Positions 1-6,000 of a DNA stretch of 46,213 bases are shown here, in pieces. The stretch is taken from IMG/VR virus record IMGVR_UViG_2859821903_000001. One strand, 5' to 3'. The number at the start of each line of letters is the position of its first letter. The stretch's first letter is position 1. Source of the DNA: a virus. Taxonomy: Duplodnaviria > Heunggongvirae > Uroviricota > Caudoviricetes. Position numbers: made by a program.

Positions 1-3000
1 TTGCCTCCCCCCGTTGATGGGTAAAATAGCCGCAATTTTTCGTTTTCAACAAGCGCGGCGCGATGCCGCTTACTCAAGAAGAAAGAATTATGACGTTGTC
101 TCCTTATTTGCAAGAGGTGGCGAAGCGCCGCACTTTTGCCATTATTTCTCACCCCAATAATTAATCCCAAATTAAAGCTCTTTTGCTCTTTCAAAATCCT
201 TTCAGTTAATTGAGGTCTAGTTATATAACTCATTTAAATACATATGGTTATGTGGCTTCTTTAATTGAAAATTCTTTCATGTAACTTTAAATCGATCAGG
301 TTGCTTTCATCAAAAATCTGTACATATGCTTGTACATAATGTACAAAGCAGCAGAGGTGTTTTGCGATTTGTACAAGGTGAGTAATGGCGCTGTCTGATG
401 CGTGGTTGCGTTCAGTCGTTGGAAAGGAACGTGATAAGGTTTTGGTTAAATCCGATCGTGATGGTCTGTCTGTCAGAGTATCACCGAAAGGTCGCGTAGT
501 GTTCCAATATCGTTATCAATGGGCAGGGAAAGGTGAGCGTCTTGATATCGGAACTTACCCGGCAACTGGATTAAAAGAGGCCAGAGAAGAAGTTATCCGT
601 CTCCGTGGTGAACTCGAGTCAAACCGTAATCCACGATTGGTCAAGCAGGCTGAAAAACGAAAAGCTACTGAAGCCATGACGGTAGAGTCTGTGATCCGTG
701 CCTGGTATGAAGCATATTGTGTAAAAAATAAAAAGGGTTCTGAACAGATACTCCGCTCGTTTGAGCTGCACCTGTTCTCTAAAATCGGGAACATCCCTCA
801 CGATGCAGCTACATTGCATGATTGGTTAGAAGTCCTGGAGCCTCTTAGCACTAAGACTCCAGCTATAGCAGACCGATTGCTAATTAACGCAAAGCAGGCC
901 CATGTCTGGGCGTATAAGAGAAAGCTTATTGAAACTCGCCCGCTGTCGGATATCACGGGTAAAGATATGGATATCCGTAAAGGTCAGAAGAAACGGTTTC
1001 TGACACACGATGAAATTAAAATTCTTTATGCTGCGATCGATGGCTCTAGAATGGTTCCCAAATACCGGGCCTTCATTAAACTATTACTGCATTTTGGTTG
1101 CCGTAGTTCGGAGCTAATTACTGCTAGGGTGGGTGATTTTGATTTCATAAATAAGGTATGGACTGTACCACCTGAACGACATAAGACAGGGGACATAACA
1201 GGCGAACCGCTAAAGCGGCCCATTATTGAACCGGTTGAAGAGCTTATAAAATACGTTATCTCTATGAACAACGGTTCCGATATGCTTTTTACTAAGGAAG
1301 GAAGCAGGGAGCCAGTCGGTAGGACATCATTACAGTCGCTGCCTTACAATTTAATGCAGTACGCGTGGCGGCGTTTAGGATATCAATTCCCTCATTGGTC
1401 TCTTCATGACTTGAGACGGACAGCACGAACAAATTTTTCTGATCTTACTGCGCCTCATATCGCAGAAATTATGCTTGGTCATAAGCTGCCAGGGGTATGG
1501 CAAGTTTATGATAAGAGCGATTATCTAGAAGAACAGCGTAAAGCTTACCTGGCATGGTGGAAGAGGGTTGAATCGATTGTTAATTGTACTATCTCTGATT
1601 CAAACTGACGGTTTGTATCACCTGAACATAACCAAATCTCCTAGCACACTTTGAGCGAGATGTGAGCGTTAAGTTTACGCCATTGTGTTGACATAAGAGG
1701 GCACGGGTATAGATATCATCACTATCCCTATGCCCCTAAATCGCTCCTGCTATTTGATAAATGCAGATGTTTACCACCAAATGTTTTTGATACTATAGGT
1801 TGATTCATGATTTACCTAGAAACTTAGTTGTAACGAAAACTTCTTAACGGACACTATCTGGATAAAGTTAGTTTTTTATTTAAGAGGGTTAACATGTCAA
1901 ATGGATTTGCCCCTATATTTCCAGACATCTGTTATCACTTAACCCATTACAAGCCCGCTGCCGCAGATATTCCCGTGGCGAGCGATAACCCAGCGCACTA
2001 TGCGGATGCCATTCGTTATAATGCTCGAACGCCTCTGCAAGGTTCTTTGCTGCCGTTAACCCGTCTGGTTTGGGCATGATACTGATGTAGTCACGCTTTA
2101 TCGTTTTCACGAAGCTCTCTGCTATTCCGTTACTCTCCGGACTCCGCACCGCCGTGTTCTTCGGTTCAAGTCCCAACATCCGGGCGAACTGGCGTGTTTC
2201 ATTAGCCCGGTAGCATGAACCATTATCCGTCAGCCACTCCACTGGAGACGACGGAAGATCGTTGCCGAAGCGGCGTTCCACCGCTCCCAGCATGACGTCC
2301 TGTACTGTTTCACTGTTGAAGCCGCCGGTAGTCACCGCCCAGTGCAGTGCCTCACGATCACAGCAGTCCAGCGCGAACGTGACACGCAGTCTCTCTCCGT
2401 TATCACAGCAGAACTCGAACCCGTCAGAGCACCATCGCTGATTGCTTTCTTTCACGGCCACTCTGCCTGTATGTGCCCGTTTCGATGGCGGTACAGCAGG
2501 TTTTCGCTCAAGCAACAGCGCATTCTGGCGCATGATCCGGTAAACACGTTTGGCATTGATCGCAGGCATACCATCAAGTTCTGCCTGTCTGCGAAGCAGC
2601 GCCCATACCCGACGATAACCATACGTGGGCAGCTCTCCGATAACATGGTGTATACGGAGAAGCACATCCGTATCATCAGTGTGACGACTGCGGCGGCCAT
2701 CCATCCAGTCATCGGTTCGTCTGAGAATGACGTGCAACTGCGCACGCGACACCCGGAGACAACGGCTGACTAAGCTTACTCCCCATCCCCGGGCAATAAG
2801 GGCGCGTGCGCTATCCACTTTTTTGCCCGTCCATATTCAACGGCTTCTTTGAGGAGTTCATTTTCCATCGTTTTCTTGCCGAGCAGGCGCTGGAGTTCTT
2901 TAATCTGCTTCATGGCGGCAGCAAGTTCAGAGGCAGGAACAACCTGTTCTCCGGCGGCCACAGCAGTAAGACTTCCTTCCTGGTATTGCTTACGCCAGAG

Positions 3001-6000
3001 AAATAACTGGCTGGCTGCTACACCATGTTGCCGGGCAACGAGGGAGACCGTCATCCCCGGTTCAAAGCTCTGCTGAACAATTGCGATCTTTTCCTGTGTG
3101 GTACGCCGTCTGCGTTTCTCCGGCCCTAAGACATCAATCATCTGTACTCCAATGACTAGTCTAAAAACTAGTATTAAGACTATCACTTATTTAAGTGATA
3201 CTGGTTGTCTGGAGATTCAGGGGGCCAGTCTATCAAAGTTAAAAAATGAACCATTAGTAAGGGTATCAGAAGAAGACGGAATAGAAATAAGGAAGATCCA
3301 ATATCCAGATAATACGATAGAAAGAGTTTATAAGCAGAAAGGTGTAATATTACCACGAATACCTTTAAAAGGCCGCTTTGTAGAACAATATGTGGCCTTA
3401 CAGTTGCTGGATAAAGATCTTCGGAATGTTATTGGTTGGGAGAATATAATAAAAAACATTTGTAATAACATTAATAGAGAACAACACTTTATTTATCCTG
3501 ATTTAGAAAAGAATCTAATATTAAAGTCTTTATTTATATCAAAAGTTGTTACTTACGGTAAGTGTTTTACAGAGGCGAAAGGGCGTCGATTCACATTGCA
3601 GAGAAAGCATGTGCCAGAAAAATACAGAGATTTACATGATTCTATTATGAATGTTAGACATAACTTTGCTGCCCATAAAGGTGAATTTGAATATGATCAA
3701 TGTGGCTTGGTTTTAATATTGCCGGGGACCAAGAAAAAAAGGTACTATCATATTTTTTCAGAACTCAATCAAATAAATTACGGTAATAATGAGGAAGATG
3801 ATGAACGTTTTTTTATGTTATATGATTCACTGCGTAAAGTCATTAAAGAAAAACGAGATAAATTAATTGATAAAATATACGCTGAAAAGATTCATACTCA
3901 AACAATGGAGTATTGGTTGAGCCGAACAGGAAAAGAAACAGAGATTTAATTTGTTCAGTATATAAAAGCTAATTTTTAAGGAGTAATTTTCAGATGATTA
4001 AAGCTGATTACATTGCGATAGGTACTCTACGACTAACTTTTCAACAAGAGTAAGGGGGTAATCAATTTTATTTGTATCAATGGTATGACATTTCTTGGCG
4101 ATAATGTTTTGATCTTATCGATTCATGTCATATGGTCATTGGTAACGTCCGCTCTTGGTAAAGAGTGGACGCTCAGATTAGGTTTGGCATCTAATCATAG
4201 ATGTGTCAGCTCACATCTAAGCTAATACATATTAATCAATTACTCCCGCAAATCTGTAAATCTTGTGTGATGCCCATTTATTTGGGCAGGATTTAATATC
4301 AGGATCTGGAAAGTCAGGCCTGTATTTCTGGCCAGTTCTCCTGTTTACGCTGTTCCAGCGAAGAACTGTCGATACTGAAACACCACAGAAATCGGCGACT
4401 TGTTTAGTTGTCATTAAGTTGTTCATTACTTCACCTCCTGCGGCGGCTCCGGTAGCGGCATCCAGTGGGTTACTTTCGATGCCGGTTCTTCCCCATTGTC
4501 AGTAACTGCCCACCATTTGTTTCTCGAACAATCGTAATACCCTTCGAAGGTATCGCACTCAGTCCAGCCGTAAGACTTACCCCAACACCAAACATACTGT
4601 TTATCGTTCGGCATTCGCTCACTACAGCTTATCCAACCATCCGGAGTTACCGGAGAGTTGCCCGACAGCTCGTTCAACTTGTAAGTCTGGCTTACAGGTT
4701 CGGCACCATTAAGCATGGCGGCGCGGCAGGCGTTCCAGCCTTCATCAAAGCCGACTATGCCATTATTTAAAGACGGACGAGCATCTGGCACCACCGGCAC
4801 TGGCTTGGCTATATATAGCGGCTGAACATACCAGCCCTTTGATAACCAACTGTCAGCAATGTTTTTACTCCTCGTTATTGCCGGAATACCTAAGCCATTT
4901 TCTGAATGCAGCCATGCCACCGGCTCCTCTTCTAGCGATGCCAGAGCAATTTCATAAGCACGGCGCTCAATATCGTCTCGAACCTCTAGGCTGCTGATTC
5001 GTTCTTTGATTTCTTTAATCAGTTCTTTATTGGTAAATGTGGTCATTATGCTCCAGCCTCCGGCGCTTTTGGCATTACTGCCCAGTGAGTGATATTGAAG
5101 TTTTCAAGGTCCCCGACCTGAAATGTCCACTGCCATTCTCCGGTTTCTTTTTGTCCCCAGGTGTACCAGAGAGAACGCCAGCCAATCAGCCAGCCTTCTC
5201 CGTTAGCATCAAATAACAGAACACTTTCATTTGCTGGTGGCAGTTCAGCTGACACTGGTATTATTTTGTTTTCCAGTGCCGCACATTTAGCTTCAAGCGC
5301 GTCGAATTTACGTACCAGGTACTCAGCATTTGTTTCGTTCACTTTCAGATCTCGCGGTACACATTTCCCGCGAAGAAACCCTTCCATTTCGAAAACATTC
5401 ATGCGCATTTGCGTAACTCCGATAACTCGTTAAAACGTTCCATAAACATCCCGTAGGCATGGCTAGGTTCCAGTGGAATCACGTTGAACATCTCTGTTGC
5501 CGGGATGCCTTCCAGTACAGGCCAGAAAGAGCCATCATCAAGCCCGAGATCGCGGCGTTCGGTTGCCAGCATGATAAGATCGGCATATTTCACGGGCGTA
5601 CTCATAACTGGGGGTAACCCGTATTTCTCACGGATTACGGCGTCAATTTTTTCTTCCATCCGTTTATAGTCAGGAAGAAGGCGTTTCAGTGGAGCGGGAA
5701 TATCCTGGCAATACGCTTCTGTTGCATCATGCATTAACGCTTCAAAAGCAAATTCCTGCGGCACCAGCTGGCTGCAAAGCACCGCATGTTGGGCGACACT
5801 GTAGAAGTGAGAAAGATGACCGGCAAAGCGGCAGATATTTGAAAGGGAAACCGCGATATCGTTAATCACGATGTCGTCTTTATTTATCTTGTCATAATAA
5901 AAATGCTTCCCGGAAAAAGTTTTAATAAATGACATTTTGTTCTCCACGTATATGCGCTGCACCGCGCTGAGTTTGGGTAAAAGGAAGCCCTCACCATCCG

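Follow-up and report, generated by a model that had tools for sequence, protein, structure and literature searches.

The closest described relative in type to the gene considered here is HepS (STM14_3211) of the Salmonella prophage Gifsy-1, a "HEPN solo" abortive-infection anticodon nuclease, which is constitutively expressed, remains non-toxic on overexpression until it is triggered, and is activated by a siphovirus tail-tip protein, whereupon it cleaves the anticodon loops of tRNAs (PMC13043305). More generally, HEPN proteins share a four-helix fold with an Rx4-6H motif and act as metal-independent RNases that depend on the R and H of this motif, usually as dimers with juxtaposed motifs (PMC3710099). 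Here, we analysed a 46,213-nt stretch of prophage DNA (IMG/VR record IMGVR_UViG_2859821903_000001; this whole stretch is referred to as the window) with respect to a disrupted cargo gene located next to the integrase gene at positions 1894-3949, which we term gene X. The prophage cargo in question consists of a single gene (PHROG 8440; WP_000040219.1; gp29 of phage 2H10), and the segment carries an allele of it that a recent IS2 transposition disrupted. Our overall reading, to which we assign a probability of roughly 50%, is that it represents a silenced allele of a solo HEPN-like, probably abortive-infection, prophage cargo gene.

Like HepS, the gene X product is a single, partner-less protein of less than 250 aa encoded in an accessory slot of a lambdoid prophage, and in our working model, which draws on this analogy, it would likewise be inactive until a trigger is encountered. 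The two differ in their motifs, with Rx4H at R100-H105 in HepS and Rx5H at R143-H149 in the gene X family, and the predicted fold of the gene X family, unlike HepS, includes a beta unit at the N-terminus and a beta-hairpin that follows the motif. Moreover, activity, trigger and structure of HepS have been established experimentally, whereas the gene X family is known from sequence and predicted models. PDB sequence profile searches returned no sequence relationship between the gene X family and HepS; in the LT2 Gifsy-1 record no open reading frame (ORF) with R100-x4-H105 was found, and STM2620 was without a PDB match. A second system that comes into consideration is AbiU2 (PF18734) of the lactococcal AbiU system, which would share with gene X the character of an abortive-infection (Abi)-type gene on a mobile element, but which has been reported in operons with Sel1-repeat or restriction-modification genes, whereas gene X is solitary. 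HEPN-MNT (DUF86) toxins and integron-cassette HEPN proteins (PDB 7ae2, 1ylm, 3jrt) have 8-10% sequence identity to the gene X protein. The latter, in contrast to the HEPN-MNT modules, is encoded without an adjacent MNT antitoxin; it is longer than these proteins by about 100 residues and contains beta elements.

The disruption itself can be read directly from the window. The stranded 5' end of gene X at 1882-1901 (+) consists of a Shine-Dalgarno sequence (AAGAGGG, 1882-1888), the ATG at 1894 and the subsequent TCA AA; the insertion point of IS2 is thus located 8 nt (ATG TCA AA, 1894-1901) into the 720-nt gene. The insertion sequence (IS) follows at 1902-3232 (-) with a length of 1331 bp, and its transposase genes, orfA (2776-3186 (-), open, probable ATG at 3141) and orfB (1913-2818 (-), open), are antisense to gene X. 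It is flanked by a perfect target-site duplication, TCAAA, with the left copy at 1897-1901 and the right copy at 3233-3237. The terminal inverted repeats are imperfect (TGGATTTGCCCC... / TAGACTGGCCCC...), the outer ends of the element read TGGATTTGCCCC.../...GGGGCCAGTCTA, and the element end is 95-99% identical to thousands of E. coli records annotated as "IS3-like element IS2 family transposase". Its assignment to IS2 is consequently based on the size of about 1.33 kb, the imperfect repeats, the 5-bp duplication, the orfA/orfB arrangement and the identity to annotated IS2. Compared with known inactivation events by IS2 (IS3 family), the size, the 5-bp duplication, the imperfect repeats, the overlapping ORFs and the polar splitting of a gene are alike and nothing is unusual; the event is therefore ordinary and relevant to annotation only, where gene X of this window should be treated as a pseudogene.

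Downstream of the element, the body of gene X extends over 3238-3949 (+), from the last base of codon 3 to codon 239 and the stop codon (3947-3949). Deletion of 1902-3237, which we used for reconstruction throughout, yields an in-frame sequence of 720 nt, i.e. 239 aa plus stop, with a GC content of 31% compared to 51% for the window and with lysine at 26 of 239 residues. Since the body contains neither a frameshift nor a premature stop and is 99.9% identical to intact alleles, i.e. is without further lesions, we conclude that the insertion is recent. The first-pass annotation, which was made from the sequence alone, had already described the coordinates, the IS2 element with its perfect TCAAA duplication, the in-frame 239-aa reconstruction, the separation of the start codon from the body and a lysine-rich protein with the motif VRHNFAAH; all of this agrees with our results, in which the cut after 8 nt removes both the Shine-Dalgarno sequence and the ATG from the body, and R143...H149 is encoded at 3656-3676.

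That annotation had also proposed a search for IS-free alleles, and such alleles do exist. Among 5426 complete E. coli genomes, 70 contain uninterrupted sequence reaching from the 3' end of the integrase gene int across the insertion junction to the excisionase-like gene xis. E. coli JNEC-KY171 matches best (99.9% identity over 1364 bp in one contiguous piece), and the cultured phage 2H10 carries the IS-free junction at 99.6% identity. In these IS-free relatives, a 720-nt coding sequence is annotated at the position of gene X as "hypothetical protein" (WP_000040219.1; gp29 in 2H10); a literature search for the accession WP_000040219 gave no papers. Gene X is intact in 70 of the 71 E. coli carrier genomes, with a conservation of 97.9-99.9%. 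The remaining carrier, E. coli bR_120_Kylling (NZ_CP182374.1, 4191-6246; L003), harbors a second, independent IS2 in gene X, which has the same orientation, is located after nt 517 of the gene with a duplication of nt 513-517, and is 96% identical to the IS2 copy of the window. Test material is hence present in nature, comprising the intact alleles of 70 sequenced E. coli strains and of the cultured phage 2H10, and the two natural IS2 knock-outs could serve as isogenic-style controls.

The number of intact alleles also bears on the meaning of the insertion. The window contains another IS, an IS911 (IS3 family; 18989-20236, 1248 bp, 3-bp GTA target duplication), which splits the endolysin gene: the rrrD-like endolysin ORF (18559-19080), located between the holin gene (18344-18559) and Rz (20292-20771), runs into the end of IS911, and judging from this sequence the prophage is probably lysis-defective. 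Because IS911 splits the endolysin gene and 70 of 71 alleles of gene X are intact, the IS2 hit looks like general IS-driven decay, and the simplest reading is that of a prophage decaying in an IS-rich host rather than that of a sign of a harmful gene. The same two findings lend no support to the earlier suggestion that a gene of this kind is typically inactivated by IS elements. Alternatively, gene X could encode a constitutively harmful toxin, in which case the IS2 insertion would have been selected as a relief of its cost, a scenario to which the first-pass annotation alludes. HEPN proteins are often toxins, and two independent insertions of IS2 in the same orientation within a gene of 720 bp (after nt 8 and after nt 517) would be in line with such a selection. 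However, the gene is intact and conserved at 97.9-99.9% in 70 of the 71 carriers without a conserved neighbouring antitoxin, its homologue is the last gene of the element in P2-like phages, IS911 in the endolysin gene is an IS hit unrelated to gene X, and the solo HEPN protein HepS is non-toxic when overexpressed (PMC13043305). We thus regard a constitutive toxin as improbable and favor IS-driven decay.

Due to the insertion, the promoter region, the Shine-Dalgarno sequence and the ATG of gene X are now 1.3 kb away from its body, in which the next in-frame methionine is M139. The first-pass annotation had pointed to a formally possible fusion product, and the underlying ORF is real: at 3098-3949 (+), a reading frame of 283 aa with a GTG start begins inside the left end of IS2 and stays open in phase with gene X, as the TCAAA duplication supplies codons 2-3 again. 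Behind this ORF, however, there is neither a promoter-like site nor a ribosome-binding site, since a search for plus-strand sigma-70-like promoters inside IS2 and at its end found none (the best candidate scores 8/12 and has a poor -10 element) and no Shine-Dalgarno sequence precedes GTG 3098 or ATG 3149. Gene X is therefore almost certainly off in this window, and, as far as the sequence allows such a statement, it was almost certainly the IS2 insertion that silenced it. For gene X to be still functional, read-out from the left end of IS2 would have to produce the 283-aa fusion or the shorter form starting at ATG 3149, both of which would keep residues 2-239. The open reading frame with its recreated codons 2-3 and the variable length of the N-terminus within the family would allow for such a product, but the lack of a sigma-70-like promoter on the plus strand and of a Shine-Dalgarno sequence, as well as the location of the region antisense to the IS2 transposase transcript, render it very improbable. 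In line with silencing, we advise against annotating the 283-aa ORF (3098-3949) as a protein.

We then turn to the protein that the intact alleles encode. It had been described as matching no family, which holds true for curated families, as there was no match in Pfam, NCBIfam, PADLOC (DB v2; none at E ≤ 10) or PDB; it is, however, a full-length member of a family in PHROGs, namely phrog_8440 (function unknown, E = 7e-144). When 1.84 billion representatives were searched exhaustively with HMMER, 925 clusters were identified at E ≤ 1e-3, of which 399 reached E ≤ 1e-10; their members are nearly all 220-260 aa in length and match end to end. A word-indexed search gave 25 clusters only, all of them "hypothetical", and those that are named originate from Enterobacterales. 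Conservation was scored on an alignment of 116 diverse members with 20-54% identity to the query. Within these 116 members, Y109, R119, H136 and R143 are invariant, D63, K111, F113, A148, H149 and G151 reach a conservation of at least 96%, the position of E156 is acidic in all aligned members, and the length of the N-terminus varies. The core signature of the family is R-[H/N]-N-[F/Y]-[A/V/T]-A-H-[S/A/K]-G. From the full-length match, the number of clusters and this pattern of sequence conservation we conclude that PHROG 8440 is a real, selected protein family. A PHROG scan assigned all 116 members to phrog_8440 with no link to any annotated PHROG, and a PADLOC scan of the same members gave scattered single chance hits only.

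The signature includes the Rx5H motif R143-H-N-F-A-A-H149, which is encoded at 3656-3676 (+), is present family-wide and is the predicted HEPN-type catalytic motif. R143 is found in 116 and H149 in 115 of the 116 members, the spacing is fixed in 115, and the position following R143 is occupied by H (66 members), N (49) or D (1). By definition, HEPN domains have an insert between the second and the third helix, carry the motif where the third core helix ends, and show a polar residue, "mostly N, D or H", after R (PMC3710099). We predicted the structure with AlphaFold2 from a 23-sequence alignment (predicted local distance difference test score (pLDDT) 87, predicted template modelling score (pTM) 0.76) and from the 116-sequence alignment (pLDDT 93.9, pTM 0.86), which resulted in the same secondary structure. 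The model comprises three beta strands (residues 9-36), helix 1 (49-79), a short helix (83-88), helix 2 (92-111), a non-helical 18-residue insert between helices 2 and 3 (112-129), which holds the invariant R119, helix 3 (130-148), a beta-hairpin after the motif (156-181) and helix 4 (188-221). As helix 3 is modelled at 130-148, R143...H149 would coincide with the C-terminus of this third core helix. The family hence displays the Rx4-6H motif and the polar residue after R and, going by the model, the expected motif position and the insert between helices 2 and 3. In addition, E/D61-K-D63-L-R/K65 is present, with D63 in 115 of 116 members, and could be the counterpart of the HEPN Ex3[K/R] element.

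At a permissive threshold, the Pfam family most commonly matched by the 116 members was PF18734 (HEPN_AbiU2), the only one that was matched repeatedly; it was obtained for 4 members, far below threshold (about 12 bits versus a cut-off of 26.8, best E 0.036). On the family consensus, HEPN_AbiU2 aligns over residues 127-151, i.e. helix 3 and the motif, with profile positions 113-138. New HEPN families have first been found via borderline hits sharing the motif (PMC3710099). The HEPN-type idea of the first-pass annotation is thereby only partly borne out: Rx5H is the most conserved feature of the family and has a HEPN-like position, but a significant HEPN match was not obtained. Still, the HEPN/Abi idea explains the data best and is now better grounded, since the motif occurs throughout the family, in the correct place and followed by the right polar residue. 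On balance, we consider it somewhat more likely than not that the gene X product contains a genuine HEPN-type domain.

Several results weigh against this assumption and against the role in abortive infection built on it. None of the HEPN families or structures was matched with statistical significance, the best Pfam score being 16 bits at cut-offs of 27-36; PDB sequence searches with the 23- and the 116-sequence profiles gave chance hits only (bacterioferritin, uteroglobin), and Foldseek searches against PDB and BFVD yielded nothing at E ≤ 1e-3. Since generic helical bundles score equally, the structural comparison shows compatibility with the HEPN fold, but does not prove it. The acidic E/D61-x3-R/K65 element with D63 is located in the first long helix (49-79), whereas the HEPN-typical site is helix 2, and the invariant Y109, R119 and H136 are outside the canonical HEPN set and could mean a different active site. 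Finally, a promoter search for gene X in this phage found none. As for other catalytic sets, a tyrosine-recombinase-like and an HKD-like arrangement were considered and rejected, since the conserved residues neither follow the order nor keep the distances that such sets require.

These points lead to the possibility that gene X is cargo with another role, i.e. a non-catalytic superinfection-exclusion or regulatory protein, an anti-defence factor or an enzyme with a Y109/K111/R119/H136 site, and that the Rx5H motif is convergent or coincidental. In favor of this possibility, every match to a HEPN family is below threshold, four invariant residues are outside the canonical HEPN set, and the other genes found between int and xis are equally unannotated, so that this slot is not demonstrably dedicated to defence. 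Conversely, it is precisely the R/H motif that is most conserved, with a fixed spacing, with H, N or D after R in 116 of 116 members and with a position at the HEPN-typical end of helix 3, and the sole recurrent Pfam match is a HEPN Abi family on exactly that segment. Taken together, we consider another role rather unlikely, albeit worth keeping in view, and continue with the solo HEPN-like reading.

The genomic context of the homologues is informative with regard to expression. In P2/186-like prophages of Enterobacter, Yersinia, Citrobacter and several IMG/VR contigs, homologues with 31-46% identity occupy the last gene position; they are located on the same strand as int, overlap its 3' end or follow it within less than about 100 nt, and are succeeded by host genes. 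In the Yersinia locus, the genes for the CI repressor, int and gene X are found in this order and all co-oriented. A genome scan for distant members returned a single Yersinia locus. In phage 186, cI and int are part of the lysogenic transcript. If the phage 186 pattern applies, the cI-int-X arrangement would, by analogy, result in expression of gene X in the lysogen. In a 2026 survey, the interval between int and the attachment site of P2-like phages was described as a minor defence hotspot (PMC13586616). One distant member is encoded in a conjugative element, where its neighbours are a Schlafen/AlbA_2-HATPase gene and an SNase gene. Since no conserved partner gene is found beside family members, the gene X protein appears to act alone.

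Judged by its motif, its predicted structure and its genomic context, the intact protein of 239 aa would be a stand-alone HEPN-like metal-independent RNase. By analogy with HepS, it would be made in the lysogen and held inactive, a superinfecting phage might supply the trigger, and the triggered protein may then cut tRNA or mRNA and thereby abort the infection; in this window, the function would be off through IS2. Extended to the family as a whole, we tentatively propose, with considerable reservation, that PHROG 8440 might be an unrecognised and widespread (about 900 clusters at 50% identity) family of self-contained HEPN-like Abi RNases, consisting of an N-terminal beta sensor, an Rx5H core, a hairpin and the extra Y/R/H residues, which temperate phages of two or more unrelated lineages (lambdoid and P2/186-like) would carry immediately downstream of int; the lysogen would produce the protein, and some component of the superinfecting phage would trigger it. 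If the protein is an active solo HEPN nuclease, it would extend the known anti-phage systems by a new one that consists of a single gene and that PADLOC, Pfam and NCBIfam lack, and the site immediately downstream of int would be a place to look, in lambdoid as well as in P2-like phages, for defences expressed in the lysogen.

With regard to the setting of gene X in the window, positions 1-165 correspond to the yjjG-prfC intergenic region and the first prfC codons, where the prophage is integrated. Because homology to the free phage 2H10 starts at position 113, the attachment core should be located within about 113-165. The stranded stub of prfC (peptide chain release factor 3) comprises 23 codons and is a partial pseudogene in RefSeq. 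The tyrosine integrase gene int (385-1608 (+), 407 aa) shows the Pfam domains Phage_integrase, Arm-DNA-bind_3 and Phage_int_M and is annotated as integrase in the records L001 and L002. Gene X follows 285 nt downstream on the same strand, and the excisionase-like helix-turn-helix (HTH) gene xis (4232-4426 (-), 64 aa; excisionase in the annotation of 2H10, weak HTH_17 match) closes the cargo slot, resulting in the order int (+), gene X (+), xis (-). The region from 113 to 16071 is collinear with the early region of 2H10 at 95-99% identity, and the late genes differ.

Related prfC integrases with 92-94% identity are found in about 700 E. coli genomes, in which homology ceases at the int stop codon. 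Elsewhere, the slot between int and xis (1609-4231 in the window) is filled by unrelated genes, namely a 331-aa ORF in UTI89, a 345-aa ORF in UTME-13 and two small ORFs of 150 and 160 aa in O145:H28 RM13514, all of which are "hypothetical" without a Pfam or PADLOC match and represent further candidates. From these variable contents beside int we conclude that gene X is exchangeable cargo and not part of the integration machinery; the earlier description as AT-rich cargo next to the integrase, which was based on the window only, is thus supported by the GC content of 31% and by the different genes among the prfC prophages. Furthermore, one IMG/VR record (IMGVR_UViG_2896595138_000007, 1-2226; L035) encodes an integrase protein identical to that of the window next to a gene X allele with 65% protein identity, a pairing that would point to an exchange of cassettes at this slot and not to a joint divergence of the two genes. 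We also considered an accessory factor for integration or excision, but rejected this option, since gene X is absent from about 90% of the prophages with a related integrase and is present in P2-like phages and in a conjugative element.

Between gene X and xis, two additional features were observed. A 19-codon ORF (MIKADYIAIGTLRLTFQQE, 3995-4054) with a strong AAGGAG Shine-Dalgarno sequence is located 46 nt downstream of gene X. Because no downstream gene is called after the homologues in P2/186-like prophages, in which these are the last phage gene, this ORF is probably not a partner of gene X, and its interpretation as an antitoxin was rejected on the same grounds. Further downstream, at 4146-4220, the stretch adjoining the 3' end of xis contains three consecutive stable hairpins, none of which is followed by a T-run; the first of them has the sequence GTCCGCTCTT-GGTA-AAGAGTGGAC and a stability of about -20 kcal/mol. 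This stretch is conserved to about 85% in Stx1a- and Stx2c-converting phages without gene X, an Rfam scan of positions 1-6000 gave no match, and the hairpins may serve to process or terminate the transcript of xis. In the late region, just upstream of the holin gene, the window encodes an N6/N4 DNA methyltransferase (17226-18347, 373 aa; Pfam N6_N4_Mtase, E = 3e-42), which lies within a stretch without counterpart in 2H10 (16071-18340), at a late-region moron position.

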